Assembly: GCA_964344725.1 (NCBI GenBank)
Contig: CAYFOI010000001.1
Location: forward strand, 61,762 to 125,761
Length of the DNA: 64,000 nt
DNA from: an uncultured Candidatus Peribacteria bacterium
GTDB taxonomy: Bacteria; Patescibacteriota; Gracilibacteria; UBA1369; UBA12470
Direction of reading: 5' to 3'
This document shows, one piece after another, positions 3,086-44,107 of the stretch. Below the pieces are notes generated by a model that saw nothing but the letters and a program-made list of their open reading frames with translations, ran no database searches and was not told the origin of the DNA. Within the stretch, counting starts at the first letter, position 1; the number at the start of each line of letters is the position of its first letter. Both the position numbers and the translations under genes were made by a program.

Positions 3086-4459
3086 TTAAGATTCTTGTGT
3101 TGGTGCTACCTCACTTGGTACTACCTCACTAACATTAACCTCTGCGTCGACCTTCTCCTCAACCTCCACTTCAGACTCTTCACTACTTGGCACTACCTCA
3201 CTATCATCAAGATCCTCAGTATGCCTCGCAACTCTATAAACCTCCTCAAGAGTAGTCATACCTTCAAGAGCTTTAATAACACCAGCTTGTTCAAGAGTAA
3301 CCATGCCTGCAGAATTTTTAGCAGAAGCTTCGATATCCATACTTGATGCTTTTTTCAAAATCAGTCTTCGAAGCTCATTATTCATATGAAGAACCTCATA
3401 AAGACCAACTCGTCCTTGATAACCAGAATTATCACACTTCTCACAACCTTTGCCTTGATAGAATTTTAAACCTTTTATAAGTTCCTGATCCACGTCTGCA
3501 TTTTGAGGTAAATTCCCAAGAGCTGCCTTTACAAGTTCCATAGTACTATCTTGTACCTGCATCTCCTCTTTGCAATGTTCACAAACTCTTCGTACAAGCC
3601 TTTGAGCAATAATTGTATTAATAGTAGAAGTCATCAAGAAAGGCGGAACACCCATATTGTCGATACGAGTCAAAGTCTCAACAGCACTATTCGTATGGAT
3701 TGTAGAAAGCACCAAATGACCTGTTAATGAGGCTTCGATCGCAACATCAATCGTCTCGCGATCACGAATCTCACCTACCATTATAATATCCGGATCCTGA
3801 CGCAAAGCAGTTCTAAGTCCGAACGCAAAAGTATAATCAATATCAGGATGTACTTGACTCTGATTAAGTCCATTCATCTGGATTTCCACAGGATCTTCAA
3901 TTGTAAGGATATTGACTTCGGGTTTGTTTAGCCTACTTAAAGCCGAATACAAAGTCGTTGTCTTACCTGAGCCAGTAGGCCCTGTAGTAAGAATAATCCC
4001 GTTAGGCATGCCAAGACTTTCCTCGATAAATTTAAGTGCAGATCCTCCAATACCAAGCTCAGGCAAATCCGGGATTTCACGTGATTGATCTTGAAGACGC
4101 ATTACAACTTTTTCACCATTTACAGTTGGAAGAGTAGAAACACGAAGATCCATCTCACGCCCATCAGGGGTAGTAACTTGACTCCGTCCATCTTGAGGAA
4201 TTCTTTGCTCATCAATCTTAAGATTCGACATAATCTTAATACGCGATACTACAGCAGGATGAATATTAGGTGGATATTCAACAATACGCCTAAGAACACC
4301 ATCGACTCTGAATCGAATACGTACAAGATTTTCCTCCGGCTCGATATGCACATCACTTGCACGACTATTTATAGCGTGAGAAAGCGAAGTCAAAACAAGT
4401 TGCGGAATGTTTCCCGCAATTATTGAGTCCTGTAATTCTTTAAGTTTGTCTTGAGTCAT
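3086..4459 (-). CDS. pilB: type IV pilus assembly ATPase (GspE/PilB family), short form with acidic C-terminal tail
   Basis: Walker A GPTGSGKTTT, His-box region LVLSTIHTNSA, tetracysteine CEHC...CEKC. There is no long N-terminal GSPII domain. The last ~45 aa are an E/S/V-rich tail. Confidence 0.85.
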   Translation of the reverse strand: MTQDKLKELQDSIIAGNIPQLVLTSLSHAINSRASDVHIEPEENLVRIRFRVDGVLRRIVEYPPNIHPAVVSRIKIMSNLKIDEQRIPQDGRSQVTTPDGREMDLRVSTLPTVNGEKVVMRLQDQSREIPDLPELGIGGSALKFIEESLGMPNGIILTTGPTGSGKTTTLYSALSRLNKPEVNILTIEDPVEIQMNGLNQSQVHPDIDYTFAFGLRTALRQDPDIIMVGEIRDRETIDVAIEASLTGHLVLSTIHTNSAVETLTRIDNMGVPPFLMTSTINTIIAQRLVRRVCEHCKEEMQVQDSTMELVKAALGNLPQNADVDQELIKGLKFYQGKGCEKCDNSGYQGRVGLYEVLHMNNELRRLILKKASSMDIEASAKNSAGMVTLEQAGVIKALEGMTTLEEVYRVARHTEDLDDSEVVPSSEESEVEVEEKVDAEVNVSEVVPSEVAPTQES

Positions 4460-4467
4460 ATCTTATA

Positions 4468-4520
4468 TTGAGCGCTACCGCGCCAAGTTATTTTTAGGCC
4501 TGTGCGCCTTTGGCGCGACC
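4468..4520 (-). repeat. GC-rich hairpin pair (H1 bulged hairpin copy A at 4497-4520, plus GCGC-GGTA-GCGC hairpin at 4468-4487) between two pilus genes
   Basis: Minus-strand reading is GGTCGCGCCAAAGGCGCACAGGCC. Compare the copies at 8006-8029, 39268-39291 and 55958-55981. Confidence 0.7.
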
Positions 4521-5108: not shown

Positions 5109-6539
5109 TTAAGATTCATCGGTTTCTGTTGCCTCTTCCTCATCTTCAACTTCGTCTTCGTCTTTGACAGCAGGTTCCTCGCTCTCCTCACCCTCTGCTT
5201 CAGACTCCTCACTATTACTTGGTATTGTCTCACTTGGCATTACCTCACTCTCCTCAAGAACAAATGTCGCATCACGCGAATCAGTACCTTCCTGTATTTC
5301 AAATTCCAGCCTAAATCTAGCTTCATATTCATTGTTGTCATCAGAAGCATCACTTTTTGTAAAACTCCTTTCATCAACATTGATAAACAACGAAGATTGT
5401 TCAAGAGCATCAATCAAATTCACAATCAAAGTGAAATTACGAGTGTCGTCAGTAATAGCAGTACCCTGCAATGAAACAGTTTTCGCAGAAGTATCAAATC
5501 CATAAGATGAATAACTAATATCACTCGCAATAGAAGTCCCATAAAGAGGATCTACTTCTTTTGTGATGGTTTGAATTTCCTGAATTATTTCAGACCACTT
5601 TTGTCGATCCGACTTGATCTTAGAAATCACAGTGAAGTTGTCTTCAGTAATATCAGAAAGTCCATCAACAATCTCTTCAGTAGATTCAAGATCTGCCGAA
5701 ACAACTTCTTTCACAAAAGCACCATTTTTAATGAGCGCGAGAGCTCCATTAAGACCACTTATTTCTAGTTGAATATCAGCATCGTCAGCAGCATCCCCAT
5801 CTTCAAGATCTGCAATTTTATCCTCAAGATATTCCTGAGTTGCTTCCTTGAACAAAATATCTACGGATAAATCAGATTCAATCTCAACGCCACTAGGGGA
5901 TACATCTTTAGACAAACGTTCTTGAGCAAGTGACAGCGCTATAGACATATCACTTTCAAGTTCATTTATTTCAGCTTCAAGAGAATCTTTGGTATTAGAT
6001 GATGTATATGCAGATTCATACTGCGAAGTCTTGTAAATATAAGAATCCGCCATATAAGCAAAACTATCCAGATAATAGTAAGCTATCAGATAATTATTAG
6101 CATTAAACTCAGCCTGTGCTCCCATAAGTTCCTCAAGAGAGCTTTCTGAAGCAAGAGTTTGATTAAGCCCAGCCACATCAAAACTAGCGGTAGTTGTAAT
6201 ATAAGATCCGACCAATAAAAGGAGCCACAAGAAAACAACCAACTTAAGTAGACTACCTCCAAAAGAAGAAGGTCTCTCTGCAATATTTAGATTGTCAGTT
6301 TTTGGCTTTGGGCCAAGTATCGATCCTTTAGTTTCAGATTTTTTAATAACAGAATCCGCAACATCATTGTCATTTTTTTCTTTACCCTTTTCTTCGTCAA
6401 ACAAATTAGTAAAAACGTTTCCGTCCGAGCCAGTCGAGGTCTCTTTTTCGGCTTCAGGAGCGGTATCAGGCGCTTTCACCTCGTCTTTTGCTAGCTTTGG
6501 GAAAAGCTTCTTTTTGCCTTTTGAAGTTTTATCGGCCAT
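5109..6539 (-). CDS. hypothetical membrane protein in pilus cluster, charged low-complexity N- and C-termini
   Basis: 476 aa with a single TM near residue 100 (LLKLVVFLWLLLLVGSYI) and an acidic tail ...EESEVMPSETIPSNSEESEAEGEE... I recognise no domain. Confidence 0.5.
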   Translation of the reverse strand: MADKTSKGKKKLFPKLAKDEVKAPDTAPEAEKETSTGSDGNVFTNLFDEEKGKEKNDNDVADSVIKKSETKGSILGPKPKTDNLNIAERPSSFGGSLLKLVVFLWLLLLVGSYITTTASFDVAGLNQTLASESSLEELMGAQAEFNANNYLIAYYYLDSFAYMADSYIYKTSQYESAYTSSNTKDSLEAEINELESDMSIALSLAQERLSKDVSPSGVEIESDLSVDILFKEATQEYLEDKIADLEDGDAADDADIQLEISGLNGALALIKNGAFVKEVVSADLESTEEIVDGLSDITEDNFTVISKIKSDRQKWSEIIQEIQTITKEVDPLYGTSIASDISYSSYGFDTSAKTVSLQGTAITDDTRNFTLIVNLIDALEQSSLFINVDERSFTKSDASDDNNEYEARFRLEFEIQEGTDSRDATFVLEESEVMPSETIPSNSEESEAEGEESEEPAVKDEDEVEDEEEATETDES

Positions 6540-6641: not shown

Positions 6642-6666
6642 TTTAAAATCCTAGAATTCTAGAACT

Positions 6667-7224
6667 CTATTTCAATGTAACAGTAGCACCAGCTTCTTCA
6701 AGCTTAGCTTTTGCAGCCTCAGCATCTTCTGTCTTAGCTCCTTCTAGAACGTTCTTTGGAGCACCATCAACGATGTCTTTAGCTTCTTTCAAACCTAGTC
6801 CAGCAAGTTCTTTTACAACCTTGATGACTGCGATCTTTTGGCCTCCAGCAGCCGTAAGCTCAACGTCATAAGAATCTTTTTCTTCAGCGCCTCCAGCATC
6901 TCCGCCAGCAGCAGCGCCTCCAGCAGGCATTGCAGCCATCATTGCAGGAGCAGCAGCGCTAACGCCGAACTCATCTTCCATAGCCTTAACAAGGTCAGCA
7001 ACCTCCATAAGAGACATCTTTTTGACCATGTCTAGAACTTTTTGAGCATCTTTTGATAGCTCTACAGGTTCTTTTTCTTCTTTTGGTTCCTCTTTTTTCT
7101 CTACTTTCTTTGGTTCTTTTTTCTCCTCCTTCTTTTCTTCCTTTGCTTCTTCAGCTGGAGCAGCTTCCTCTGCAGGAGCGTCCTCCTTTTTCTCCTCTTC
7201 AGGAGTAGTGTTTTCGTCTGCCAT
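6667..7224 (-). CDS. rplL: ribosomal protein bL12 (L7/L12) with ~55-aa K/E/P-rich N-terminal extension
   Basis: The C-terminal 130 aa align by eye to L7/L12 ([24 protein letters not shown], Ala/Gly hinge, [27 protein letters not shown]...). It is preceded by [20 protein letters not shown]...KEEKEPVEL. Confidence 0.9.
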
Positions 7225-7282
7225 GATAATAATGGGTTAGAATATTTTTAAAAATAAGGTAAAAACTATTAGTTCCTAGTTA

Positions 7283-7819
7283 TTAGCTACTAGTTTCTTC
7301 AGCTAATTTTGCTCGGTGAGCTTCCAAAACATAAACAAGTCCTCGAGTAACTCCAGCAAGGCTGTTTGCAAGCCCACTCATTGGAGACTTCATAGATCCA
7401 ATAAGTTTTGCAAGAAGTTCTTCTTTTGAAGGCATCTCAGATAGAGCTGTAACCTGTTCTAATGAAAGGACTTCTCCATCCATAAGCCCTCCAAGAAGCT
7501 TAAGAGCTTCATACTCTTTAGCAAGGTCAGCAATAGTTTTTGCTCCTGTAACCTCGTCTTCCGCGAAAATAGCAGCAACAGGACCTTCCATGATTTCGTC
7601 AGGGATAGAATCGTAGCCGTTATCTTTGGCAGCAATCTTAATAAGAGTCTTTTTAGCCACCTTGCATGCAACGTTTTTCTCACGAAGAACGCTTCGAACT
7701 TTCGAAATGTCTTTTACGCTTAGACCGCTATAGGCCGTAAACACAATAGATTTAGCATCTGCAAATTGTGCCTTTAGAGCGGCTAAGATTTCTTCTTTCT
7801 TTTGTCTGGTTATAGCCAT
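7283..7819 (-). CDS. rplJ: ribosomal protein uL10
   Basis: Typical L10 size and sequence (KKEEILAALKAQFADAKSIVFTAYSGLSV...), directly upstream of rplL. Confidence 0.9.
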   Translation of the reverse strand: MAITRQKKEEILAALKAQFADAKSIVFTAYSGLSVKDISKVRSVLREKNVACKVAKKTLIKIAAKDNGYDSIPDEIMEGPVAAIFAEDEVTGAKTIADLAKEYEALKLLGGLMDGEVLSLEQVTALSEMPSKEELLAKLIGSMKSPMSGLANSLAGVTRGLVYVLEAHRAKLAEETSS

Positions 7820-7907
7820 GATTTAGGTAGTTAGTAGATGTAGTGGTAGTTGTAGTAAATGGAGTTCTTCGGACAAATTATTAGTTATTACTTCCTAGTT
7901 CCTAGTT

Positions 7908-7950: not shown

Positions 7951-8100
7951 ATGACCCAAAGAAATGGAGATTGAGCTTCCGCTTCGCAGAAGCAGCTATC
8001 TTATTGGCCTGTGCACCTTCGGCGCGGCCTGACCAAATTCTTTTGTCTCGGCAGGTCTTATCAGGTCTCACTACGGGAGCCTGGCCTGCTGTCTGCGACC
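7951..8100 (-). promoter_or_regulatory. structured leader RNA upstream of rplJ-rplL (L10-leader-like), or a separate ~190-nt small RNA
   Basis: A GC-rich stretch between a consensus promoter and a terminator. It contains H1 hairpin copy B (8006-8029) and a GAA-loop hairpin (7974-7997). Track ORFs 7895..8212 and 7932..8246 overlap each other here and look non-coding. Confidence 0.55.
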
Positions 8101-8151: not shown

Positions 8152-9090
8152 ATGAGCGATTTACTGACACAACTCGAATCTTTCCTGAAAGAGCCCAAAG
8201 AAAAACCCCCATTAATCATAGTTTTGGGGCCTACAGCTTCAGGTAAGACAAGTTTATCTGTAAAACTTGCCCAAAAATTCAATGGAGAGATCCTCTCTTC
8301 TGATTCTAGGCAAATTTACAGGTATATGGATATAGGAACAGACAAGATTTCGCAAAAAGAAATGCAAGGGATTAAACACTATATGCTAGATGTATGTGAC
8401 CCAGATCGAACTTATACAATGGCCGATTTTCAAAGAGAAGCAACACACTCTATTAAAGAGATCCTTAATAAAGGCAAAATACCATTTTTAGTAGGTGGTA
8501 CGGGACTTTACATAAACGCAATAGCTGACAATTACCAGCTCGACAATGCACCTCCAGATCCAGCATTGCGTACAGAATTAGAACAAGAACTCGAAGAAAA
8601 AGGTGCAGAAGCTCTGCATGAAATGCTCAAAGAACTTGATCCGCTTTCAGCTTCAAAAATCCATCCAAACAATCATCATTACCTGATAAGAGCTCTTGAA
8701 ATAAATCTGAAAACCAAGCAACCGAAAAGCAATCGCCGAGGCGAACCTCCATACGAAACTTTCAAAATTGGTATAGATTGGGATCGCGAAGAACTTTATG
8801 AAAAGATTAACAGCCGGGTAGACGAACAGATAGACCGCGGGATCTTAAACGAAATCAAAACACTTCTAGCAAAAGGATATTCGCGTAATCTGCCGGCAAT
8901 GACAGGACTCGGATACAAAGAGTTCTTCCCATACTTGGATGGAGAAGCAACCCTCGAAGAATGCCTGGAACAACTAAAACAAAACACTCGGAACTATGCG
9001 AAAAGACAAATGACTTGGTTCCGCCGCGACGATGAGATATATTGGATCACCCCAAAGGAAGCAGCACAAATTAAAACTTTAGAATTCTAG
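8152..9090 (+). CDS. miaA: tRNA dimethylallyltransferase
   Basis: P-loop GPTASGKTSL; SSDSRQIYRYMDIGTDK; typical ~310 aa. Confidence 0.9.
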   Translation: MSDLLTQLESFLKEPKEKPPLIIVLGPTASGKTSLSVKLAQKFNGEILSSDSRQIYRYMDIGTDKISQKEMQGIKHYMLDVCDPDRTYTMADFQREATHSIKEILNKGKIPFLVGGTGLYINAIADNYQLDNAPPDPALRTELEQELEEKGAEALHEMLKELDPLSASKIHPNNHHYLIRALEINLKTKQPKSNRRGEPPYETFKIGIDWDREELYEKINSRVDEQIDRGILNEIKTLLAKGYSRNLPAMTGLGYKEFFPYLDGEATLEECLEQLKQNTRNYAKRQMTWFRRDDEIYWITPKEAAQIKTLEF

Positions 9091-9111
9091 AATTCTAAAA
9101 CTCTACGACAG

Positions 9112-9480: not shown

Positions 9481-9633
9481 CTCGCGCGCGATCCTCCAAC
9501 CCTATAATCCTCCAATCCTATAACTCTCTTCAACTACAAATGGGAAATTCTTAACACAGACTCGAGTCTGACGCCTTTTGAAAAAGTCTTAAAAAACCGA
9601 GGATTAACAGAGAAAGATATCAACAACGACAGT

Positions 9634-15715: not shown

Positions 15716-15773
15716 ATGGAATTTAACAAAAGGCAGATATTATAGGGCTAAACTCAAAAAAGGCAAGTGTTGT

Positions 15774-15882
15774 TAACTAATAACTAATAACTAACAACTA
15801 ATAACTAATAACTAACAACTAATAACTAATAACCACCACTACATACTACGGATTACGGATTAAGTACTACGTACTACCACTA
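15774..15882. repeat. stop-rich 7-nt-period word array (AACTAAT/AACTAAC x8, then TACGGAT / TACGTAC words)
   Basis: Direct reading: AACTAAT AACTAAT AACTAAC repeated, then CCACTACATAC TACGGAT TACGGAT TAAGTAC TACGTAC TAC. It starts at the stop of the SLH gene. Confidence 0.9.
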
Positions 15883-17208
15883 AAACGCCGTCGTCTGTCC
15901 GTCAGCAATATCGAGAATCATATCAAAAGATCTCTCATACTTAATAGTAACATCAGCTCCAGCACTGTAATAGTAGTCGACAGGGCCAGTACCAACGCCG
16001 ATTGTATCAGTTTCAATCAAATATCTATCGTCAAATAACGACAAAACATAAGTCCCCATATCCTCAGACATAATAAGCGAACGAGCCTCCTCTAAGATCT
16101 CATCCCAGTCAGTCGTTGTGGTAACAGCATCCTCAACATAAGTGGCACTAACTTCGAGGAAATAAATTTGTTTATGCGAATGCTCAGCCAGCGCGCCATC
16201 GCCATAACTACCATGCATTGTAAGAACATCACCACTTTCTAAATACACATACATATCGAGAACAGGCTCAACATCATCAGATATATAAACTTGCAAAGCC
16301 GATAGTCCGTTAACATTAAGCTCGGTAAAAGAAGCTCCATCATAGTCCATCATATCCATAACATCATCAAAAAACTCTCCCGAGGACAAGCCTTCATCGT
16401 TACTGTGAACAAACAGACTAACGCTAGCTGAATTAGGATATTGCCTATCCCAACCAGCTTGATTATTCCCTTCATCTTTGTTCCAAAGGACAACACCACC
16501 ATCTGAGCTAGAGACTACCTGCCAATCATAAGGATACTGAACTTCGTAACCTTGCTCGTTTTGATAAGATTGCCAATTTAAACTTATATCAAATTCAGAA
16601 AGCCCATAATCCTGCACATACATAAATCGATATACGATCTCCGAAAGCTCCGCACGACTCAAAGTCTGAGCCGGATAAAGAAGACCATCATCTTCTGGCT
16701 CAATCAGGTTGAAGTCTTTCGCATAAGCAACGTATTCTGCAAACCAGACATCAGCAGAAACATCTTCGTATGGATCCGACATACCCTCATAATCAAGCTC
16801 AGTTCCAGCAGCCAAAGTTAGCATTTTGAGAGCCTCTGCCAGATTAACAGTTTGATCAGGCGCAAAAGTAGAGTCGCTATACCCAGAAACAATCCCCATA
16901 TCATAAGCTGTATTTATATAAGGCAAATACCACGCGTCATTTGTAAGATCGGAAAAAGGCAACTCGTAAGTATCAAGTTCAGGAGAATCTACTCCAGCCC
17001 CGGAAAGTATGATTTTTAAAGCCTCCGCTCTGTTTATATCCTGATCTGGCATGAAAGTTCCATCATCATAACCACTAATAATGCCGTTAGATTCAAGATA
17101 AGAAATAGCAGCATAATATCGATATCCTTCCGAGACATCTGAAAAACTTGCCATAGCAAGCGAAGACCCGAAGAGAACCAAGATAAGTGAAGTAAATATC
17201 TTTTTCAT
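15880..17208 (-). CDS. S-layer homology (SLH) domain protein
   Basis: Signal peptide, then three SLH-like repeats (FSDVSEGYRYYAAISYLESNGIISGYDDGTFMPDQ..., FSDLTNDAWY...GIVSGYSDSTFAPDQ..., YEDVSADVWF...). Confidence 0.75.
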   Translation of the reverse strand: MKKIFTSLILVLFGSSLAMASFSDVSEGYRYYAAISYLESNGIISGYDDGTFMPDQDINRAEALKIILSGAGVDSPELDTYELPFSDLTNDAWYLPYINTAYDMGIVSGYSDSTFAPDQTVNLAEALKMLTLAAGTELDYEGMSDPYEDVSADVWFAEYVAYAKDFNLIEPEDDGLLYPAQTLSRAELSEIVYRFMYVQDYGLSEFDISLNWQSYQNEQGYEVQYPYDWQVVSSSDGGVVLWNKDEGNNQAGWDRQYPNSASVSLFVHSNDEGLSSGEFFDDVMDMMDYDGASFTELNVNGLSALQVYISDDVEPVLDMYVYLESGDVLTMHGSYGDGALAEHSHKQIYFLEVSATYVEDAVTTTTDWDEILEEARSLIMSEDMGTYVLSLFDDRYLIETDTIGVGTGPVDYYYSAGADVTIKYERSFDMILDIADGQTTAF

Positions 17209-17592: not shown

Positions 17593-17602
17593 GTTGTTTT
17601 TT

Positions 17603-17703
17603 GTTAGAATTCTAGAATTTTAGAGTTTTAGACCATCACCACCTACTACTGACTACCCACTACACTACGTACTACGGATTACGGATTACGTACTACCAAC
17701 TAG
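17603..17703. repeat. stop-rich word arrays (CTAGAATT family inverted, then CTAC / GGATTACG family)
   Basis: GTTAGAATTCTAGAATTTTAGAGTTTTAGACC, then CACCTACTACTGACTACCCACTACACTACGTACTACGGATTACGGATTACGTACTACCAACTAG, ending on the hisS stop. Confidence 0.9.
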
Positions 17704-19043
17704 TAAACAATCTCCCCAGGTGAATACGTATCCAAGTTCTCTTCGCCAATCAATTTGATAACTTCTTCAACGGTTTGATCAAAAGGAACAGTTTTCTGCT
17801 GACCTTTCTCCATGTCGCGGATGATAATTACACCTTCACGGACCTCTGTTATTCCCATAATGAGAGTGTAAGGTACTTTGAACTTATCGGCCAAACGTAA
17901 CTGGGCTTTCATACTTGCTTTTCCAAGAGCACCAACAGTTTTCACACCTCGATCACGCAGTTTATTCATAAGAGGAAGACATTTCTTTTTAGCTTCGTCA
18001 CCGAGCTGAGCAACGAAAATATGAATATCATCTTTAGAAGGAACTATCACGTTTTCACGTTTCATATTCATAATAATTCTCTCAATCCCAGCAGCATAGC
18101 CAGACCCTGGAGTAGGTTGGCCACCCATAAGTTCAATTAGACCATCATATCTGCCACCACCACCAATAGCATTCTGAGCACCTTGAGTCTTATCCCAGAA
18201 TTCAAAAACAGTTCCAGTATAATAATCAAGGCCTCGAACTAGCTTCGAATTCTCGACATACTCTATTTCTAATTCATCAAGAAAACTTTTAAGCTTAGTA
18301 TGGAAATCCACACAATCATCACACCTGTACTGATCAAATTTAGGGGCTAATTCTGCAAGAATTTGGCAATCTTCTTCTTTGCAGTCAAGAAGCCTAAGCG
18401 GATTACTATGTAGCCTCTCTTGGCAATTGTCACAAAGTGATCTCTCTTTACCAACATAAAAATTTACAAGATCTTCCTTGTACTTCGTACGACATTTCGG
18501 ACAACCGATATTATTAAGCTGAATTGTAAAAAGATGAGCTACGCCAAGATCCTCGTTGATTCTGTTAGCAATATCAATTATTTGAGCATCCAAAGCAGGA
18601 TCACTCTCTCCAATTATTTCAAACCCAATCTGCCAAAACTGGCGATAACGACCTTTTTGAGGTTTGTCATAACGGAAGTGAGGCTCAATATAATAAAGCT
18701 GTACCGGCTGAGGCCACTCTTTCATCCCATGTTGAATATAGGAACGAACAACACCAGCAGTACTCTCTGGTTTTAGGGTTAAACTGCGTTCGCCTTTGTC
18801 TTCAAATGTATACATCTCTTTACTAACAATATCTGTCGAATCACCAACACCACGTGCAAAAACCTCAGTGTTCTCAAAAATTGGAGTCGTAATACGTTTA
18901 AAACCAGCTTGCCTCGCACGATGACGAACAACCTTCTTGATAAAAGTAAAATACTCATGATCGTCAGGTAATAAATCATGAGCTCCGACAGGTGTTTGTA
19001 ACTTTTGTTTTTTTGTCTTCTCTTCGCCAGTATCTTCAGACAT
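17700..19043 (-). CDS. hisS: histidine--tRNA ligase
   Basis: Class II motifs including GGGGRYDGL and YAAGIERI. It has a Cys-rich insertion (CPKC...CDNC...CKEEDC...CDDC). Confidence 0.9.
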   Translation of the reverse strand: MSEDTGEEKTKKQKLQTPVGAHDLLPDDHEYFTFIKKVVRHRARQAGFKRITTPIFENTEVFARGVGDSTDIVSKEMYTFEDKGERSLTLKPESTAGVVRSYIQHGMKEWPQPVQLYYIEPHFRYDKPQKGRYRQFWQIGFEIIGESDPALDAQIIDIANRINEDLGVAHLFTIQLNNIGCPKCRTKYKEDLVNFYVGKERSLCDNCQERLHSNPLRLLDCKEEDCQILAELAPKFDQYRCDDCVDFHTKLKSFLDELEIEYVENSKLVRGLDYYTGTVFEFWDKTQGAQNAIGGGGRYDGLIELMGGQPTPGSGYAAGIERIIMNMKRENVIVPSKDDIHIFVAQLGDEAKKKCLPLMNKLRDRGVKTVGALGKASMKAQLRLADKFKVPYTLIMGITEVREGVIIIRDMEKGQQKTVPFDQTVEEVIKLIGEENLDTYSPGEIVY

Positions 19044-20650: not shown

Positions 20651-20752
20651 ATTTAGAAGTAATTTGCTTTATCTAGCCCATCCATTAAAATCTAAAAAAG
20701 CAAAAACTACAACCCACTTGGTACCACCTCACTTGGGTCTATCTCACTAATC

Positions 20753-24323: not shown

Positions 24324-24418
24324 TTTGTTTGTTTTATGGAAATTCTCTTCAAATTCTAACCTAGAAGTAAAAAAAGTTCAAAATTTCAACAAAAAGGCCG
24401 ATGCCGCGACACACACAT

Positions 24419-24463
24419 CCCACTACATACTACGGATTACGTACTACGTACTAACAACGCTAC
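24419..24463. repeat. CTAC / GGATTACG word array overlapping the rlmD-like 3' end
   Basis: CCCACTACATACTACGGATTACGTACTACGTACTAACAACGCTAC. The stop (TAA, rc of 24437-39) and the last ~8 codons (..ALLVRST) lie inside the array. Confidence 0.85.
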
Positions 24464-25816
24464 ATCCTCAATATGATAAGTATGCGGGAACATATCCACA
24501 GGCTGAACATACTCTAATTTATACCCACGATCCTCAAAAAACTTAACATCCCTCGATAAATTCACAGGGTCACAAGACACATAAACAATTCGTCCAGGCT
24601 CAAACCCGCAGACCTTGTCTGTAACCTTTTCGCCAAGCCCACACCTTGGTGGATCAACTATCACGACATCAGGCACTCCTGGAATGTCATACAGTCGAGC
24701 ATCAACATCGCCAGCCTTGAACCACGCGTTCTCGATCCCATTCAGCATCATGTTCTGCTTGGCATTCTTAGTTGCAGACTCATTCAGCTCAATTCCATAA
24801 ACCATCTTGGCCTGATTTGCACAAAACAGCCCAATAGTTCCAGTCCCACAATACAAGTCAAAGACATTTTCTTCTCCTGTCAGCTGTGCTGCCTTAAGAA
24901 CTTCCGCATATAGAACTTCAGCTTGCCTAGTATTCGGCTGAAAGAAAGCTTGCGGTGAAATTTTAAACTTCAAACTGGACCCATCAGGACGTCTAAGCTC
25001 TTCTTGAATGGTTGGCTTCCCATACAAAAGATGTTCGACATGTTGAGTAGGCATGCCACGCTTCCTCTTGATAATTGTCCAATAAATAGACGCACAAATA
25101 TCTTGCAAGAGCTCAACAAACTCCTTCTGCGGTTCAAAATCAGGCTTGCAAGTCACAAGATTCACCATGATTTCGCCTGTACTTTTGCTTTCACGAATAA
25201 AAAGAGAAGAAAGTAGTCCCTCGTCAGTTCGATAATTATAAAAAGTAAGCCTATGATCAGCAACGAACTTGCGAACTCGCGCAAGAATCTCCGAAGCCTT
25301 CTCAGAACCGAGAAAGCACTCCTCAACATCAAATACATCGACTCTTCGCCCAGCAGGATGCAATCCCACCCTCACAACAGGATCCTCTTTCGACTCATTT
25401 CCAAAAGAAAACTCCATCTTATTGCGATAAAACCAAAAATTTTCACAGCCAATAATAGGCCTAACGATTTCCGAAACATTAGTAACCCCTCCAGTATGAG
25501 TAAGGGCTTCACGAACCTGTTCCTCTTTATATTTAAGTTGTTCTTCATAGGGTAGCATCTGCCACTTACAACCACCACAACGATCAAAATGCTTGCATCT
25601 CGGATTAACTCGAGCCTTAGACGGCTCAACAACTTTCACAAGACTAGCCTCAGCGTAATTTTTCTTGATCTTGCTCAGGCTAACCTCAGCTTTGTCTCCA
25701 GGCACGACCCCTTCGACAAAAACTTTGCGTCCATCTTCAAGCGCACCAATACCTCTACCTCCAAAGGCAAGTTTTTTAATTTCGGCAGTTATAATTTGAC
25801 CTTTTTGAAGTTGCAT
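24437..25816 (-). CDS. rlmD: 23S rRNA (uracil-C5)-methyltransferase, RlmD/RumA family
   Basis: N-terminal TRAM-like domain, Fe-S Cys cluster CKHFDRCGGCKWQ, SAM motif DLYCGTGTIG, catalytic YVSCDP. Confidence 0.8.
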   Translation of the reverse strand: MQLQKGQIITAEIKKLAFGGRGIGALEDGRKVFVEGVVPGDKAEVSLSKIKKNYAEASLVKVVEPSKARVNPRCKHFDRCGGCKWQMLPYEEQLKYKEEQVREALTHTGGVTNVSEIVRPIIGCENFWFYRNKMEFSFGNESKEDPVVRVGLHPAGRRVDVFDVEECFLGSEKASEILARVRKFVADHRLTFYNYRTDEGLLSSLFIRESKSTGEIMVNLVTCKPDFEPQKEFVELLQDICASIYWTIIKRKRGMPTQHVEHLLYGKPTIQEELRRPDGSSLKFKISPQAFFQPNTRQAEVLYAEVLKAAQLTGEENVFDLYCGTGTIGLFCANQAKMVYGIELNESATKNAKQNMMLNGIENAWFKAGDVDARLYDIPGVPDVVIVDPPRCGLGEKVTDKVCGFEPGRIVYVSCDPVNLSRDVKFFEDRGYKLEYVQPVDMFPHTYHIEDVALLVRST

Positions 25817-25856: not shown

Positions 25857-26279
25857 ATGCTCAAAATAACAATCCTAAAAATCGGCAAACTCAAAAAAGA
25901 GTACGTAGAAGCAGAAAAAGAATTTCTAAAACGTCTCCAAGCCTTCGCCGACGTAACAGTAGAAACAAAAAAAGACGACGAATCTATAGCAAAATCACTA
26001 GATCCACAAACACACATAATCTCACTTGATCGTGAAGGCAAGCAATATTCATCCGAAGATTTTGCAGAAATAATCCGCGATCAAAGAGATTTCGGCAAAG
26101 GAGCGATCACTTTTTTAATCGGAGGTCCCCACGGGTTCCCTGAAGAAATAACAAGAAAAGCACACCTGCGCCTATCTTTCTCAAAGCTGACTTTTACGCA
26201 CCAGCTCGCATACATACTGCTTCTCGAACAACTCTATCGTACACACACCATTCTAAGCGGCAAAAAATACCACTACTAG
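25857..26279 (+). CDS. rlmH: 23S rRNA (pseudouridine1915-N3)-methyltransferase
   Basis: SPOUT fold motifs FLIGGPHGF, LSFSKLTFTHQL, EQLYR. Confidence 0.85.
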   Translation: MLKITILKIGKLKKEYVEAEKEFLKRLQAFADVTVETKKDDESIAKSLDPQTHIISLDREGKQYSSEDFAEIIRDQRDFGKGAITFLIGGPHGFPEEITRKAHLRLSFSKLTFTHQLAYILLLEQLYRTHTILSGKKYHY

Positions 26280-26313
26280 CTACTGACTACTGACTAAATC
26301 CTACTGACTGATA
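26268..26313. repeat. CTACTGA 7-nt word array spanning the rlmH stop to the next start
   Basis: TACCACTACTAG CTACTGA CTACTGA CTAAATC CTACTGA CTGATAA. A TGA or TAA occurs in each 7-nt unit. Confidence 0.9.
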
Positions 26314-31333: not shown

Positions 31334-31361
31334 TTGACATTAACGTTTCGATGAATAAAAT
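31334..31361 (+). promoter_or_regulatory. candidate ilv promoter TTGACA-N16-TAAAAT flanked by palindrome AAACGTT(31323-29)/AACGTTT(31342-48)
   Basis: Direct reading. The transcription start would fall only a few nt before the leader-peptide ATG. Confidence 0.45.
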
Positions 31362-31371
31362 CGAGGTAACT

Positions 31372-31431
31372 ATGAAATTTCTACGCGGAACAAAACTAAT
31401 TTCAATTATTCTAATCCTAGCCCTGAGTTAG
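31372..31431 (+). CDS. Ile/Leu-rich leader peptide MKFLRGTKLISIILILALS
   Basis: 19 codons, with 8 of codons 9-18 being Ile or Leu. It lies immediately upstream of alternative hairpins and a terminator, and of BCAA genes. Confidence 0.65.
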   Translation: MKFLRGTKLISIILILALS

Positions 31432-31453
31432 CGAGATCTTTTATGTAAATATG

Positions 31454-31497
31454 TCCCCGCAAAGAACCTCGCTAACTAAGAAGCGGGGATTTTTTTT
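31454..31497 (+). terminator. attenuator terminator TCCCCGC-22 nt-GCGGGGA + T8
   Basis: Stem 31454-60/31483-89 followed by 8 T. A competing 10-bp stem (31426-35/31468-77) overlaps the leader stop codon. Confidence 0.65.
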
Positions 31498-33648: not shown

Positions 33649-35339
33649 AATCTGATAATTTTAGTGAACAACAGCTGGGAGGGGGAGCTCGTGAGGGGGA
33701 ACCTAAGGTGCCCACTCACGAATTAAGATCTGATATTTTAAAAAAAGACGTTGCAACAATCCCACACCGCGCGCTCTTGCGAGCATGCGGCGTTACAGAG
33801 GATGACTTCAAAAAACCTTTCATCGGAGTCGCAAACTCATATAACGACGTAGTGCCAGGACACATACATCTGAACGAATTAACAGAGGAAGTTAAGCGCG
33901 GAATCCGCGATGCTGGAGGCGTCCCATTTGCTTGGGGAGTGCCTGGAGTTTGTGACGGGATAGCGATGTATGCGGAAATGCGTTTATCTCTTCCATCTCG
34001 AGAACATATTGCTGACAACATCGAGATCATGATGCTTTCTCATTCGTTTGATGGATGGGTCGGAGTCACTAATTGCGACAAAATTACGCCAGGAATGCTC
34101 ATGGCAGCAGGTCGTTTAGACTTGCCAGCAATGCTGATAACAGGCGGCCCTATGAAAAGAGCGGAAAGTGATGGTGAAAAAGTTCATCCAATCCAAGGAT
34201 TCGGATACGCAGGACAAGTTAAAGCCGGCAAAATGAGCCTCGAAGAAGCTGAAAAGAAACTCCAAATCTGCTCAAAATGTGGAGCCGGCTCTTGCGTTGG
34301 TCTATACACAGCAAACACAATGGCTTGTGTGACCGAAACACTCGGTATGTCCGTCACGAAATGTGCAACGACATGGGCTCTTTCAGAAGAAAAAAAGAAT
34401 CAGGCTTACGAAACAGGTCGTCGCATAGTTGAGTTGGTACAGCAAGACATGAAACCGTCTCAAATTATGACGAAAGAATCTTTTGAAAACGCAGTCAGGG
34501 TAGATATGACAATGGGAGGATCCACAAACGCAGTTCTTCATATCCCAGCGATCGCAAAAGAACTCGGTATCGAGATTGGCAACGACGATTTCGATAGGAT
34601 AGCTCGTGAAACCCCGAACATCTGCAAGCTTATTCCGGCCTCGGACAAATATGAAATGATCGATCTTGATAGGGCAGGCGGAATCCCCGCAGTTTTGAGT
34701 CGGATAAAAGATATGATTAATGATGGACAGACTGTGAACGGACGAACCATTATGGAAATCGCATCTTCAGCTGAAATTCTAGACGATGATGTTGTGAGAC
34801 CACTAGACAATCCTTACTTCGAACAAGGTGGAATAGCCGTTTTGAAAGGCAACATCGCGGAAGGATCTGTAATCAAACAAACAGCAGTCGTAGAAGACAT
34901 GATGGAGCACTCAGGTCCGGCAAAAGTTTTCACTTCAGAAGAAGATTTACTTGTAGCAATTGAGAAGAAAGAGATCGAAGAAGGCGACGTAGTTGTAATG
35001 CAATATATGGGACCGGCTGGAGCACCTGGAATGCCGGAAATGCTTACTCCGACAGACGCGATCAAAGGCGCAGGTTACAAAAAAGTCGCACTAATAACAG
35101 ATGGCAGATTTTCAGGAGGAACCGTAGGTCCATGCATAGCTCATATCGAACCAGAAGCATTTAACGGTGGACCAATTGCAGCAATCCGAGATGGTGACAT
35201 CATAGAAATCAGCGTCCCAAATCGTACACTCAATGTGAAACTCTCAGACGAAGAAATCGCAGAACGTCTCAAAACCGCACAAGCACCAGAAAGAAAAATG
35301 ACATCAGTCCTTGAAAGATATCGTGACATGTATTCATAA
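33645..35339 (+). CDS. ilvD: dihydroxy-acid dehydratase
   Basis: PHRALLRACGV, CDGIAM, CDKITPGMLMAA, TDGRFSGGT. The ATG overlaps the upstream stop (ATGA). Homology begins near codon 24, and an in-frame GTG at 33708 is an alternative start. Confidence 0.9.
   Translation: MKSDNFSEQQLGGGAREGEPKVPTHELRSDILKKDVATIPHRALLRACGVTEDDFKKPFIGVANSYNDVVPGHIHLNELTEEVKRGIRDAGGVPFAWGVPGVCDGIAMYAEMRLSLPSREHIADNIEIMMLSHSFDGWVGVTNCDKITPGMLMAAGRLDLPAMLITGGPMKRAESDGEKVHPIQGFGYAGQVKAGKMSLEEAEKKLQICSKCGAGSCVGLYTANTMACVTETLGMSVTKCATTWALSEEKKNQAYETGRRIVELVQQDMKPSQIMTKESFENAVRVDMTMGGSTNAVLHIPAIAKELGIEIGNDDFDRIARETPNICKLIPASDKYEMIDLDRAGGIPAVLSRIKDMINDGQTVNGRTIMEIASSAEILDDDVVRPLDNPYFEQGGIAVLKGNIAEGSVIKQTAVVEDMMEHSGPAKVFTSEEDLLVAIEKKEIEEGDVVVMQYMGPAGAPGMPEMLTPTDAIKGAGYKKVALITDGRFSGGTVGPCIAHIEPEAFNGGPIAAIRDGDIIEISVPNRTLNVKLSDEEIAERLKTAQAPERKMTSVLERYRDMYS
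33654..33720 (+). repeat. 67-nt G-rich hairpin module, copy 1 (inside annotated ilvD 5' end)
   Basis: 61/67 identical to 35447-35513 by manual alignment. Stems CGTGAG/CTCACG and GGGAACC/GGTGCCC. Confidence 0.9.
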
Positions 35340-37183
35340 TGACAAAGAATATTAAAAAAGGTGAATTAAAATTATACGAGCGCACGTCGAAACAAAAGAG
35401 ACGGGTCTCGTGGGTCCCGGCTCGCCTTGTTTCTAAGTTTAGTGAGGATGATTTTAATGAACAACAGCTGGGAGGGGGAGCCCGCGAGGGGGAACCTAAG
35501 GTACCCACTCGCGACAACTTAACAGGGTCGGATATAATAATGAAAAGCCTTATTAAAGAGGGAACAAAAGTCATATTCGGATATCCAGGAGGCGCGCTGA
35601 TCCCAATTTATGATGCAATGACCAACTATCCAGAGCTCAGGCATATCCTTGTAAGACACGAACAAGGCGCAGCTCTCGCCGCAGACGGATACGCTAGATC
35701 AACCGGCGAAGTTGGGGTTTGCCTAGGGACGTCAGGTCCAGGCGCAACCAACCTAGTCACGGGTATTGCAAACGCATACATGGACTCGGTCCCAATGGTT
35801 GCGATAACAGGACAGGTTAACAAAGGAATGCTAGGTAGCGACGCTTTCCAAGAAGTCGATATTACAGGAATTACGCTCCCGATTACGAAACACAATTATC
35901 TTGTCGACAATACAGAGGATCTCCCGATGATTATTAAGGAAGCTTTTTATATAGCAAAAAGCGGTCGCCCGGGTCCTGTGCATATCGATATTCCAGTCGA
36001 TCTTTGTAAAAAATCTTTAGACAGCTTTGAATATCCAGAAAAAATAGAAATCCCAGGCTTCGAAATCCCAGGTAAAGCGGACGAAGAAGCTGTGAAGAGA
36101 GCGGTAGAACTGATCCAAGAGTCAAAAAAACCGGTAATAATCTGTGGACATGGAGTTCCGATTTCAGGAGCATCCAAAGAGCTCACAGAACTTGCAGAAA
36201 GAAGCCACATTCCAGTAGTTCACACAATCCTCGGCAAAGGATCTTTCCCAGAAAGCAGTCCATTGTCATTCGGAATGCTAGGAATGCATGGTATGGCTTA
36301 TGCGAACTTCGCAGTTCATCACTCAGACTTAATAATCAATGTCGGATCACGTTTTGACGATAGAATTACAGGCAGCTTAGACGCTTTCGCAAAAGGAGCG
36401 AAGGTGATTCATGTCGATATCGACGCATCCGAGATCAACAAAAACGTTCCAGCATACTTGCCAGTAGTCGGTGACGCAAAAAAAGTCCTCAAGCAAATTC
36501 TCGAAATCCTGCCACACAAAAAACACCCAGATTGGCTTGATGAAATCGACGGATGGACTAAGAATTACCCACTCGCAGGCAAGGAAACAGAGATGCTCAC
36601 AGTTCCAAAAGTCCTTGTAAAACTGCACGAAGCAACAAAGGGTGATGCTCTTATAGTAACAGATGTAGGACAGCACCAAATGTGGTCAGCCCAATACTAT
36701 CCCCAAGACAAACCAAATAAATTCCACACATCAGGAGGTCTTGGCGCAATGGGATACGGACTCCCTGCAGCAATTGGAGCCCGTGTCGCAGATCCTGACG
36801 AAGAAATTTGGCTAATCAGCGGCGATGGAAGCTTCCAAATGAACATTCAGGAGCTTATGACAATTGTTCAGGAAAACATCGATATAAAGATCGCAATAAT
36901 GAACAATGGATTCCTTGGCATGGTCCGCCAATGGCAAGAAATGTTTTACGACAAAAACTACTCAGGCACACCGATAACAAGTCCAGATTACCAACTAATC
37001 GCAGAAGGCTACGGACTAAAACACTTAAGAGCTCGCACGGAGCAGGAGGCAGAAGACGTTATAAAAGCGGCTCGCGATCTCAAAGGTACGGTAATATGCG
37101 AATTTATAATAGAGCCAGAAGACAACGTATTTCCAATGGTCGCACCAGGCAAAGGACTAAAAGACACGTTGATTGGGAAATAG
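35339..37183 (+). CDS. ilvB: acetolactate synthase (AHAS) large subunit
   Basis: FGYPGGALIPIYDA, GLGAMGYGLPAAIGA, GDGSFQMN. The ATG overlaps the ilvD stop (TAATG). Homology starts near codon 62, and ATG 35540 is an alternative start. Confidence 0.9.
   Translation: MTKNIKKGELKLYERTSKQKRRVSWVPARLVSKFSEDDFNEQQLGGGAREGEPKVPTRDNLTGSDIIMKSLIKEGTKVIFGYPGGALIPIYDAMTNYPELRHILVRHEQGAALAADGYARSTGEVGVCLGTSGPGATNLVTGIANAYMDSVPMVAITGQVNKGMLGSDAFQEVDITGITLPITKHNYLVDNTEDLPMIIKEAFYIAKSGRPGPVHIDIPVDLCKKSLDSFEYPEKIEIPGFEIPGKADEEAVKRAVELIQESKKPVIICGHGVPISGASKELTELAERSHIPVVHTILGKGSFPESSPLSFGMLGMHGMAYANFAVHHSDLIINVGSRFDDRITGSLDAFAKGAKVIHVDIDASEINKNVPAYLPVVGDAKKVLKQILEILPHKKHPDWLDEIDGWTKNYPLAGKETEMLTVPKVLVKLHEATKGDALIVTDVGQHQMWSAQYYPQDKPNKFHTSGGLGAMGYGLPAAIGARVADPDEEIWLISGDGSFQMNIQELMTIVQENIDIKIAIMNNGFLGMVRQWQEMFYDKNYSGTPITSPDYQLIAEGYGLKHLRARTEQEAEDVIKAARDLKGTVICEFIIEPEDNVFPMVAPGKGLKDTLIGK
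35447..35513 (+). repeat. 67-nt G-rich hairpin module, copy 2 (inside annotated ilvB 5' end)
   Basis: See copy 1. The outer stem here is CGCGAG/CTCGCG. Confidence 0.9.
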
Positions 37184-37254
37184 TCAGTAGAAACTAACTT
37201 GCGCAAAGCGCTCCACTACTAAAATCCTCTAATCCTACAACCCTACAATCCTCC
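37181..37254. repeat. word array + GCGC-AAA-GCGC hairpin (37198-37214) + AATCCTNN 8-nt array between ilvB and ilvN
   Basis: TAGTCAGTAGAAACTAACTTGCGCAAAGCGCTCCACTACTAAAATCCTCTAATCCTACAACCCTACAATCCTCC, then ATG. Confidence 0.85.
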
Positions 37255-38096: not shown

Positions 38097-38137
38097 AAAA
38101 CTAATTCTAGAATTCTAAAACTCTAAAATTCTAACCC
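38091..38137. repeat. CTAGAATT/CTAAAACT 8-nt word array between ridA and ilvC
   Basis: AACTAGAAAACTAATTCTAGAATTCTAAAACTCTAAAATTCTAACCC. The same family occurs at 1051-1081, 6645-6669, 9073-9105 and (inverted) 17603-17634. Confidence 0.9.
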
Positions 38138-39341: not shown

Positions 39342-39386
39342 ACAAATTACTATGTACTACCACTACTAACTACACACTACACAAAA

Positions 39387-44101: not shown

Positions 44102-44107
44102 AATAAA

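Follow-up and report, generated by a model that had tools for sequence, protein, structure and literature searches.

Short tandem arrays of 7 or 8 nt words lie in the gaps between genes of a 64,000 nt stretch of DNA from an uncultured Candidatus Peribacteria bacterium (GenBank assembly GCA_964344725.1, contig CAYFOI010000001.1, positions 61,762–125,761, forward strand; hereafter, the window). Their presence was confirmed and is far beyond what chance would give. The class to which they belong has already been described, as short tandemly repeated repetitive (STRR) sequences and TAACTGA repeats of other bacteria; the window arrays match these in structure and position, and differ from them in sequence. 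The explanation we prefer, and to which we give about an even chance of being correct, is that these are intergenic heptamer and octamer arrays of the STRR/TAACTGA class in a Peregrinibacteria lineage devoid of Shine-Dalgarno (SD) sequences, that the copies close to start codons probably act as leaders, and that the closure of reading frames by the arrays is a by-product.

The arrays were detected with Tandem Repeats Finder (TRF), with a lag-match scan of our own (at least 4 copies and at least 78% match) and by threshold-free autocorrelation of the gaps, and the null model consisted of 200 dinucleotide-preserving shuffles. By the lag-match scan, seven arrays of period 7 and six of period 8 are present in the whole window, and none of periods 5 and 9–13. 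The intergenic DNA (5,658 nt) holds six of period 7 and three of period 8. The shuffles gave a mean of 0.0 at both periods, never more than a single array of period 7 and never one of period 8. The autocorrelation of the gaps reached z values of 5.5, 4.3 and 6.0 at lags 7, 14 and 21. The curated set comprises 24 arrays, with a total length of 971 nt. The period-7 arrays found by TRF have 3.6–8.6 copies, and period 8 is seen in three word families. All arrays are intergenic, or overlap an open reading frame (ORF) only in its final 4–28 nt. The initial annotation of this DNA, made from the sequence alone, had listed such arrays at gene boundaries and had pointed to shuffling as a check; the gap on which it focused reads as described, nearly all its coordinates were recovered by TRF or the lag-match scan, and the placement at boundaries and the excess over shuffles were both borne out. 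It went too far in assigning arrays to most gaps, since 17–18 of the 46 gaps of at least 20 nt hold curated arrays, and also in two details: the array at 44330–44357, given as period 8, has a period of 7 (or 14) in TRF, and the GTAG words, taken for regular arrays of 7 or 8 nt, are irregular, with TRF periods of 3, 7, 12 and 13.

Thirteen of the 24 curated arrays are covered by six contigs from two other samples (European Nucleotide Archive ERZ930070 and ERZ930068), at 99.95–100% identity and with zero indels. As six independent contigs agree without indels, the arrays are not length-polymorphic in this population, nor are they an assembly artefact, the misassembly that the initial annotation had wished to see checked being thereby excluded. 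Indels the size of an array unit (7 or 8 nt) were absent between the window and the six contigs, and also from two near-identical pairs of related genomes, L005 and L007 (99.9%) and L008 and L009 (99.97%); in the latter pair, the sole gaps are two single bases. A hypermutable or phase-variable contingency type of simple sequence repeat (SSR) was rejected because no near-identical pair differs by a 7 or 8 nt indel, the arrays lie outside ORF bodies and the period is no multiple of 3. The plain microsatellite expansion first suggested is likewise at odds with the lack of copy-number differences between near-identical strains, and with word families that are common to several gaps. A clustered regularly interspaced short palindromic repeat (CRISPR) array was considered and rejected: CRISPR arrays have repeats of 24–48 nt with unique spacers of similar length between them, while the units here are 7–8 nt long and follow each other head to tail, without spacers. 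A scan of the whole window with Rfam at gathering thresholds returned tRNA-Gly only, and no L10, S15 or pnp leader.

The distinct word families of the window genome number six or more, and related arrays recur at separate loci. An exact 9-mer is common to 44 of the 276 pairs of window arrays (shuffles: mean 4.6, maximum 11), and 22 of the 24 arrays have a 9-mer partner elsewhere in the window. In one family (D2), the variant heptads GTAGTAC, GTAATCC, GTAGTAY and GTAGTGK occur in the same order at four loci, and the differences between the copies amount to whole heptads. From the shared 9-mers and the constant order in D2, it follows that a few families have given rise to the arrays as dispersed copies, resized by units, and that the arrays are not independent local microsatellites. 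Slipped-strand replication or recombination would create the arrays and resize them in steps of 7–8 nt, and a copy-paste route, possibly ectopic conversion, may carry them between gaps. A few word families with a common (A)CTA/TAG core have spread to many gaps of the window genome. The copies and orientations that survive would be set by tolerance or use in a very compact, SD-less genome.

The dispersal might also be that of a miniature mobile element, akin to repetitive extragenic palindromic (REP) sequences and bacterial interspersed mosaic elements (BIME), to miniature inverted-repeat transposable elements (MITE) or to small dispersed repeats, with a transposase encoded elsewhere and the heptads as a secondary feature, and this we regard as very improbable. 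Copies at different loci do share stretches of 27–46 nt at 74–96% identity and in both orientations, the array density of the window is about four times that of its closest relatives, the words at the junction of hisS and trx have been replaced in the window lineage, and there are three composite elements of inverted arrays with a conserved central hairpin. The REP and BIME of enterobacteria are also short dispersed extragenic repeats that follow stops or lie between operon genes, in both orientations and sometimes as composites. However, REPs are imperfect palindromes mobilised by REP-associated tyrosine transposases (RAYT), whereas most window arrays are direct repeats that have no dyad symmetry; self-complementarity is limited to the CTAGAATT unit, and the three composite elements form hairpins. 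Most arrays also lack terminal inverted repeats, target-site duplications were not recognised, the number of units varies and the ends are not fixed, and neither a transposase nor a RAYT or integrase was seen in the 64 kb (roughly 60 proteins scanned).

Two sets of further loci were compared with the window. The first comprises six further lineages with a histidyl-tRNA synthetase (HisRS) 81–89% identical to that of the window, together with a seventh, partial and more distant lineage (L013, 71%), and the second, 19 distant loci of the Candidate Phyla Radiation (CPR), with a HisRS identity of at most 47%. The intergenic DNA of the close relatives, with the window excluded, gives z values of 4.4, 3.7 and 3.9 at lags 7, 14 and 21, and the distant loci give 0.9, 0.5 and 1.6, with no array of period 7 or 8 in about 230 kb. 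This shows that intergenic DNA with heptad periodicity characterises the clade. It was also shown that several lineages carry arrays at shared gene junctions, with changed words. At the orthologous hisS-trx gap, arrays are present in five of seven lineages, and consist of TAGTACG/TAATCCG heptads followed by CTAAAACT octads in the window, CTTGCAA ×4 in L002, AGACACAGATAGYA ×2 in L005, ACAGNAA/AGACACAG in L010, and ATAGACNN ×3 (period 8) in L008. Words of the ATAGACA type are common to three lineages at this junction, with periods of 7, 8 and 14, so the hisS-trx array is old and its period has changed during descent; in the window and in L002, the array of this type has been replaced. Arrays have been gained and lost among the lineages at other junctions, and no exact 9-mer is shared by arrays of the window and those of the relatives (0 of 432 pairs). 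Conservation in related genomes, another check named in the initial annotation, therefore holds for position, which is often kept in close relatives, but not for the words.

Word turnover of this completeness, between lineages with a HisRS still 81–89% identical to that of the window, is in keeping with a reading of the arrays as selfish or neutral simple-sequence DNA. They would be products of slippage and recombination without function, the preference for 7–8 nt would stem from the replication machinery, and polarity and stop codons would reflect which insertions are harmless. We see this as possible but doubtful. Arrays that appear and vanish at single gaps would suit it, as would the fact that most leaders are array-free, and among long SSRs, heptamers show the strongest over-representation in many bacteria, with a polymerase footprint proposed as the reason (Mrazek et al. 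2007, as summarised in PMC4692102 and PMC4679880). Yet arrays of 30–100 nt persist in a genome that is about 91% coding, the hisS-trx array has been kept across several lineages, and near-identical strains show no length polymorphism. Long, identical, higher-order word orders at separate loci go beyond what local slippage alone would give, and arrays precede highly expressed essential genes, such as rplJ, ilvN and ilvC.

The most consistent regularity is the polarity of the arrays at start codons. Nine of the 24 arrays end 0–12 nt before a start codon (rplJ, a mazG-like gene, recJ, a thioredoxin (trx)-like gene, the gene at 26317, ilvN, ilvC, a Na+/H+ exchanger gene and sdaA), and in all nine, C exceeds G on the mRNA strand, with no more than one G in five of them. 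The + strand is C-rich in 19 of the 24 arrays overall, but three start-proximal arrays belong to minus-strand genes and run against this bias, so the polarity follows the gene and not the DNA strand. In the relatives, the same polarity is seen in six of seven start-proximal arrays (AGTCCTA, CTACAAA, CTTCCTAA, ACTCTGTC, CTATTAT, TCTGTTA). Gene leaders in the window are generally rich in A, C and T, with 12.6% G, and the array leaders have only 5.7% G; a minimum free energy (MFE) of 0 is predicted for five of the nine start-proximal arrays, and AUG, GUG and UUG are nearly absent from them. Where arrays are found only after stops, G exceeds C on the mRNA strand in nine of nine cases. All nine belong to minus-strand genes, however, and are confounded with the C-richness of the + strand; the polarity is therefore claimed for start-proximal arrays only, and a G-rich orientation after stops was set aside as an independent rule. 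Two post-stop arrays sit between the stop codon and a conventional intrinsic terminator. The arrays themselves were considered as intrinsic terminators and rejected, because folding is confined to the self-complementary CTAGAATT family and to the composite elements, and the two arrays just mentioned lie upstream of separate, conventional terminators. CsrA-like GGA sites within ACGGATT words were also dismissed, being on the antisense strand in three of four copies.

The genome is compact and SD-independent, as had been supposed: coding density is about 91%, and the SD 4-mer core is missing from 58 of the 59 window genes of at least 100 aa. In agreement with this, Candidatus Peribacter riflensis has been listed as SD-scarce (7% SD), without the conserved anti-SD core CCUCC (PMC10783764). 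Across the array-bearing clade, the SD 4-mer occurs in 0–20% of genes and leader G is 10–16%, compared with 47–80% of genes and 17–26% leader G in most distant loci with at least seven genes, where arrays are absent altogether. Arrays and heptad periodicity are thus confined to the SD-less clade among the loci examined, which is suggestive of a link to the loss of SD sequences. Judged by their sequence, the arrays beside start codons are probably SD-independent leaders: they are nearly without structure and without AUG, GUG or UUG, which is what SD-independent initiation needs, and are accordingly treated here as putative ribosome-loading leaders. They may be bound by proteins of the oligonucleotide/oligosaccharide-binding (OB) fold that bind single-stranded RNA with footprints of roughly 7 nt, such as bS1 and cold-shock proteins. 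Most CPR bS1 proteins have 3–4 S1 domains (PMC9297842), CspB binds a pyrimidine-rich heptanucleotide (PMC1904285), and in the SD-less Bacteroidia, mRNA structure tunes initiation and AUG is depleted near start codons (PMC6847099); by analogy with these cases, an OB-fold footprint is a plausible source of the 7–8 nt register.

A property that had drawn attention at the outset is that the arrays would place a stop codon in every reading frame. This is so for the 12 stop-adjacent arrays, each of which closes all three sense frames, but among the 24 arrays overall, all three frames are closed in 13 on the + strand and in 19 on the − strand. The arrays could on this basis be a frame-independent translational punctuation, selected to stop ribosomes in any frame at gene ends. 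Random tandem 7- or 8-mers of like composition close all frames 47–51% of the time, so that 12 of 12 speaks for this idea. TAG is an unusually frequent stop codon in the window (22, or 37%, against 27 TAA and 10 TGA), and ends, as part of the array itself, 10 of the 12 genes with a stop-touching array as against 14 of 53 other genes (Fisher p = 4e-4). Stop trinucleotides in the arrays number 99 and 117 on the two strands, above the 56 ± 5 and 74 ± 6 of the shuffles, and several ORFs run into arrays and end there, for example that of MiaA and ORF 57690–57941, which does not meet its stop until the third word of its array. However, the enrichment is limited to CTA (3.9-fold), TAG (4.1-fold) and the related CTAG (8.4-fold) and ACTA (6-fold), while TAA is at expectation (1.16-fold) and TGA (0.66-fold) and TCA (0.04-fold) are depleted. 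What the arrays have in common is therefore a CTA/TAG core on double-stranded DNA and not a stop codon as such, and stops on both strands are expected from this core without selection on the sense strand.

The relatives also speak against punctuation. One of their 11 stop-adjacent arrays, which include those of orthologous gaps, closes all frames, and five close none (e.g. CTTGCAA after hisS, AATTTCG after the gene for an S-layer homology (SLH) protein, and AGACTTGG); a general enrichment of stop codons was accordingly set aside in favour of the CTA/TAG core. In the window, some arrays lie in divergent upstream regions without an incoming ribosome (7826–7907 and 52629–52712) or after terminators, and where a start-proximal array has no contact with a stop, frames often stay open. 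Punctuation is thus an apt description of the stop-adjacent arrays of this genome, and an improbable reason for their existence. Our conclusion is that this class of element is not maintained in the clade by a role in frame-independent termination, and the same point was made by MacGregor for the TAACTGA repeats (PMC4679880). Frame closure in this genome is best explained by common descent from a TAG-bearing word, combined with a filter of tolerance at 3' ends. Arrays at 3' ends would invade an ORF only where a stop is soon supplied, and the filter and the shared ancestry together may produce the look of stops in all frames without this being a selected function.

Several observations weigh against the preferred explanation of start-proximal arrays as leaders and of frame closure as a by-product. 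Fifty of the 59 window genes have G-poor leaders without an array, so initiation can do without arrays, which may be no more than tolerated in leaders. Roughly one array in two is found elsewhere than at a start codon, after stops, before terminators or in composite hairpins, and the leader model gives these arrays no function. The association of arrays with SD loss comes from one clade and is a single phylogenetic event, for which reason it is only suggestive. No gene for a transposase or another mobile-element function, to account for the copy-paste step, was detected in a scan of roughly 60 window proteins, and slippage is deduced from heptad differences between paralogous copies, with no copy-number polymorphism between near-identical strains. 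Finally, frame closure in all 12 stop-adjacent arrays exceeds what a simple tolerance filter obviously predicts.

The arrays could also be sequence-specific binding sites of a dedicated DNA- or RNA-binding regulator, for example Rho (at rut sites), a nucleoid protein or a global regulator that acts after transcription through recognition of the (A)CTA core. The ACTA/CTAG core is enriched 6–8-fold, a C-rich and G-poor composition is seen in several arrays, identical units in tandem would lend themselves to cooperative binding, and the same proposal was made by MacGregor for TAACTGA (PMC4679880). But one genome has no fewer than six word families, all of which are replaced in relatives only 10–20% diverged in protein sequence, so that the factor would need to co-evolve very fast; no candidate for it was found among the window proteins, and we think such a regulator improbable. 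The rut-site version, raised in the initial annotation for the C-rich orientations, fits poorly. Rut sites are C-rich, G-poor, unstructured segments of untranslated RNA, of about 70–80 nt, upstream of a Rho-dependent 3' end. Start-proximal arrays have this composition, yet they measure only 30–46 nt (30–66 nt for the arrays at large), and their position within operons, immediately ahead of start codons, is one at which termination by Rho would do harm; arrays that precede intrinsic terminators show the G-richer orientation.

The three composite elements share one plan, in which a GTAG-word array is followed by a small GC hairpin and a C-rich array. For element 2, a long periodic hairpin of −29.4 to −32.7 kcal/mol is predicted (z −2.7 to −4.6 relative to shuffles), and for element 3, one of −28.9 kcal/mol (z −3.7); element 1 (7826–7907) folds no better than shuffles (z about +0.4). 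In the rpsO-pnp spacer (47837–48049), it is the complementary arrays of element 2, flanked by Pfam matches to S15 and PNPase, that make up the long hairpin, and the same composite element occurs upstream of leuS and rplJ. The spacer hairpin recalls the pnp leader of E. coli, which has a hairpin processed by RNase III. A wider reading, which we consider unlikely, is that complementary arrays constitute a genome-wide cis-regulatory grammar that takes the place of SD-based recruitment in the SD-less CPR clade, with G-free leaders and G-rich post-stop complements gating initiation. One word would be bound by each OB-fold domain of bS1 or of a cold-shock-type protein, the complements would pair with leaders in cis at the composite hairpins (rpsO-pnp, leuS and rplJ) and elsewhere in trans, and the spread would be by a copy-paste process anchored on TAG stop codons. 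If true, this would be the first mechanistic explanation for the STRR of cyanobacteria and for the TAACTGA repeats.

The initial annotation knew of no described element class like this one, but such classes exist: STRR sequences, long SSRs, the TAACTGA repeats (PMC4679880) and G-rich heptamers (PMC4692102). TAACTGA repeats are known from marine Beggiatoaceae (about 25% SD), from some Cyanobacteria and from Bacteroidetes, a distribution with which the suggested link to SD loss agrees; they are mostly in forward orientation, end about 1 nt upstream of SD-less start codons, and have bS1, cold-shock proteins and CsrA as proposed binders (MacGregor 2015, PMC4679880). The window arrays resemble them in being short tandem arrays of 7 nt units (2–6 or more copies), almost all intergenic and interspersed with variant heptamers. 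Many end 0–12 nt upstream of start codons in a fixed orientation, with downstream genes that lack an SD; some overlap and terminate the ends of ORFs; there are stops in all forward frames and no predicted RNA structure; and ribosomal protein operons are among the sites. Arrays after stops and those in composite elements have their published counterparts as minor classes. The focal unit TAACTAA is one mismatch from TAACTGA, and CTACTGA shares ACTGA with it. In contrast, a search for a TAACTGA tandem in the window found none, so the unit itself is different, and there are at least six families in place of one word, three with period 8, in a CPR host and with words wholly replaced between close relatives. 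Many copies follow stops in the opposite orientation, and some inverted arrays are combined into composites with a small GC hairpin at the centre.

STRR sequences, described from Calothrix and Nostoc, have units such as CCCCAGT, TTGGTCA and CAACAGT. STRR and long SSRs (Mazel 1990; Mrazek 2007) are recognised by a unit of 5–11 nt, a length greater than chance and many loci in one genome; the window has 24 arrays in 64 kb, where zero are expected from shuffles. According to the summaries in PMC4692102 and PMC4679880, the function of STRR and long heptamer SSRs (Mrazek et al. 2007) has been without an answer since 1990, and the features given there include heptanucleotide arrays at many intergenic loci, genome-specific units and a preference for heptamers, all of which apply to the window arrays. 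Unlike STRR, these are found in a host that is no heterocystous cyanobacterium, have different units, are 30–66 nt long and AT-rich with a CTA/TAG core, and include units of 8 nt. The G-rich heptamers GGGAATC of Xanthomonas and GGGGA(T/C)T of Nostoc are intergenic, mostly within 50 nt of ORF ends and at conserved positions (Rehm et al. 2015, PMC4692102). Strand dependence on the ORF, positions that are kept while length and sequence vary, and some paired inverted repeats are features common to both (PMC4692102), but the G-rich heptamers form G-quadruplexes, whereas G-runs are absent from the window arrays, many of which have one strand entirely free of G. The translation initiation regions of Bacteroidia (Baez et al. 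2019, PMC6847099) also lack an SD, have A-rich unstructured leaders and avoid extra start codons; they are generally not tandem repeats, and the likeness is a functional analogy and not that of a repeat family.

A literature search on Peregrinibacteria and tandem repeats found nothing, and the genome paper on Peribacteria mentions only short repeats near the origin. New in the present case are the phylum, the joint occurrence of 7 and 8 nt families with a CTA/TAG core and their anchoring on TAG stops, the strict polarity at start codons, the composite inverted arrays and the clade-level association with SD loss. The lineage offers a clean natural test case, being compact and SD-less, with arrays that abut stops and starts and show strict polarity, and the hypothesis that heptad arrays are SD-independent, ribosome-loading leaders is directly testable in it. 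Should the arrays be only tolerated filler, they would still be a new phylum-level record of a known repeat class. The individual arrays and composite elements are listed in Table 1.

Table 1. Positions and surroundings of the repeat arrays and composite elements of the window.
Feature	Position	Strand	Context and remarks
Focal gap	15716–15879		Between two minus-strand genes
Focal array, TAACTAA ×8.6 on + strand (mRNA sense TTATTAG/TTGTTAG)	15774–15836	−	TRF and sequence reading; TRF also gives a 21 nt super-unit AACTAATAACTAATAACTAAC ×2.8 at 15775–15833, 100% match
7 nt array, mRNA sense TAGTACG/TAATCCG (+ reading ACTACGN/GATTACG), family D2	15837–15879	−	Directly after TAG stop of SLH protein gene 15880–17208 (−); TRF 15838–15877, period 7 ×5.7 (second part of focal gap)
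8 nt array CTAAAACT/CTAGAATT (+ reading)	1047–1081	−	TRF; holds TAG stop of pilin-like gene 1075–1596 (−); between this stop and an intrinsic terminator (− strand 1043–1028)
8 nt array CTAGAATT	6643–6672	−	Holds TAG stop of rplL (6667–7224, −; L7/L12 Pfam match); intrinsic terminator next (− strand 6644–6613)
7/14 nt array, mRNA sense AACTAGG/AACTAAT, family D7	7262–7300	−	Overlaps TAA stop of rplJ (7283–7819, −)
GTAG-word array on + strand, G-free ACTAC-word leader on mRNA	7826–7858	−	Left arm of composite element 1; ends 6 nt before rplJ ATG at 7819 (L10 Pfam match); + strand C = 0, G = 12; predicted MFE 0.0
Small central hairpin GTTCTTCGGAC of composite element 1 (D14)	7864–7874	Unassigned	
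7 nt array TTATTAG/TTCCTAG (D7, I5, I10)	7878–7907	+	Right arm of composite element 1
8 nt array	9071–9109	+	Spans TAG stop of miaA (8152–9090) and encodes the final residues of MiaA; ends 2 nt before MazG-like ATG 9112
8/16 nt G-free array ATCCTCCA/ACCCTATA	9491–9528	+	Between MazG-like stop (9480) and recJ ATG 9540 (start placed by conservation); G = 0; predicted MFE 0
8 nt array, mRNA sense CTAAAACT/CTAAAATT/CTAGAATT (I1, I8, I24)	17601–17636	−	Ends 8 nt before ATG 17592 of thioredoxin-like gene
7 nt array (D2)	17638–17703	−	First heptad is TAG stop of hisS (17700–19043, −); 90% identity over 40 nt to 15837–15876
7 nt array (D2)	24414–24463	−	Overlaps final 27 nt and TAA stop of tRNA methyltransferase gene 24437–25816 (−)
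7 nt array CTACTGA (D4)	26268–26313	+	Spans TAG stop of SPOUT methyltransferase gene; ends 3 nt before ATG 26317; MFE 0
8 nt G-free array AATCCTNN	37218–37254	+	Ends exactly at ilvN ATG (37255); G = 0, C = 15
8 nt array CTAGAATT/CTAAAACT	38097–38137	+	Starts directly after ridA TAG stop; ends 9 nt before ilvC ATG (38147)
ACTAC-word array (G = 1)	39341–39386	+	Ends at true ATG (39387) of Na+/H+ exchanger gene
7/14 nt array AGCTACN	44329–44359	−	Holds TAG stop of serine dehydratase gene 44355–45635 (−)
7 nt array, mRNA sense TTCCTAG	45637–45673	−	Ends 1 nt before serine dehydratase ATG (45635)
8 nt array, mRNA sense TTAGCTNN	45675–45714	−	Holds TAG stop of pnp (45704–47836, −)
Composite element 2	47885–47985	−	rpsO-pnp spacer; GTAGCTT array 47885–47919, hairpin GCGCGAAGCGC 47926–47936, CTACTGA array 47939–47985
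Composite element 3	52629–52712	+	Between divergent genes, upstream of leuS; GTAG-word array 52629–52660, hairpin GCGCTTCGCGC 52665–52675, ACTACGN array 52674–52712
7 nt array, mRNA sense GAAACTA/GGAACTA (I2, I12)	57680–57717	−	Supplies TAG stop of ORF 57690–57941 (−), only at the third word

The genes of the window have ordinary housekeeping functions, and include leuS, hisS, pnp, rpsO, rplJ-rplL, an ilv operon, recJ, miaA and genes for a type IV pilus or type II secretion system. The relatives of the SLH protein are encoded by metagenome-assembled genomes of Candidatus Peregrinibacteria/Peribacteria, with synteny kept over about 20 kb. A cyanobacterial origin, suggested at first by the heptamers and a GC content of about 40%, was rejected on account of these relatives and of the coding density of about 91%. 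GC skew tracks the strand of the genes, and there is an overall excess of C on the + strand. The arrays have a practical use as marks of true gene boundaries at places where mechanical ORF calls go wrong, and several C-termini are array-encoded. The mechanical call for the Na+/H+ exchanger gene begins at TTG 39255 and runs through the array that precedes its true ATG at 39387, and recJ is called from 9634, with a true start at about 9540. The L7/L12 ORF (6667–7224) has about 55 extra N-terminal codons ahead of its first Pfam domain. The 5' end of the mechanical ORF 42986–44194 overlaps tRNA-Gly(GCC) at 44134–44208 (−), so its true start must be downstream of the tRNA gene.

A RelB-like antitoxin beside a small ORF (55324–55865) and a Fic/DOC family protein (41879–42871) are probably toxin-antitoxin or accessory genes within this housekeeping region. 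Separate from the heptad arrays, a GC-rich, REP-like hairpin, GGCCTGTGCGCCTTCGGCGCGGCC, is present in four intergenic copies (4497–4520 and 8006–8029 on the + strand, 39268–39291 and 55958–55981 on the − strand), with at most three mismatches and none expected by chance. Upstream of an ilvA/leuA-like gene at 31807 is a putative ilv attenuator (31335–31497), where a promoter-like TTGACA/TAAAAT pair, recognised by eye, precedes a leader ORF of 19 codons, many of them for Ile and Leu (31372–31431, MKFLRGTKLISIILILALS), and then a hairpin with a T8 tract (31455–31497) and a possible alternative pairing. A direct repeat of 68 nt (33654–33721 and 35447–35514, 91% identity) lies near the 5' ends of IlvD-like and IlvB-like ORFs, and encodes the peptide EQQLGGGAREGEPKVPT, common to both and upstream of the first Pfam domain of each. 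A 15 nt tandem motif, ACTTGGTACTACCTC, occurs at 3100–3130, 3185–3210, 5217–5249 and 20716–20741 of the window and at about 2005–2045 of L002; two ORF regions contain copies, read from the opposite strand, and a copy in the leader of the CCA-adding enzyme gene is the one kept in L002.

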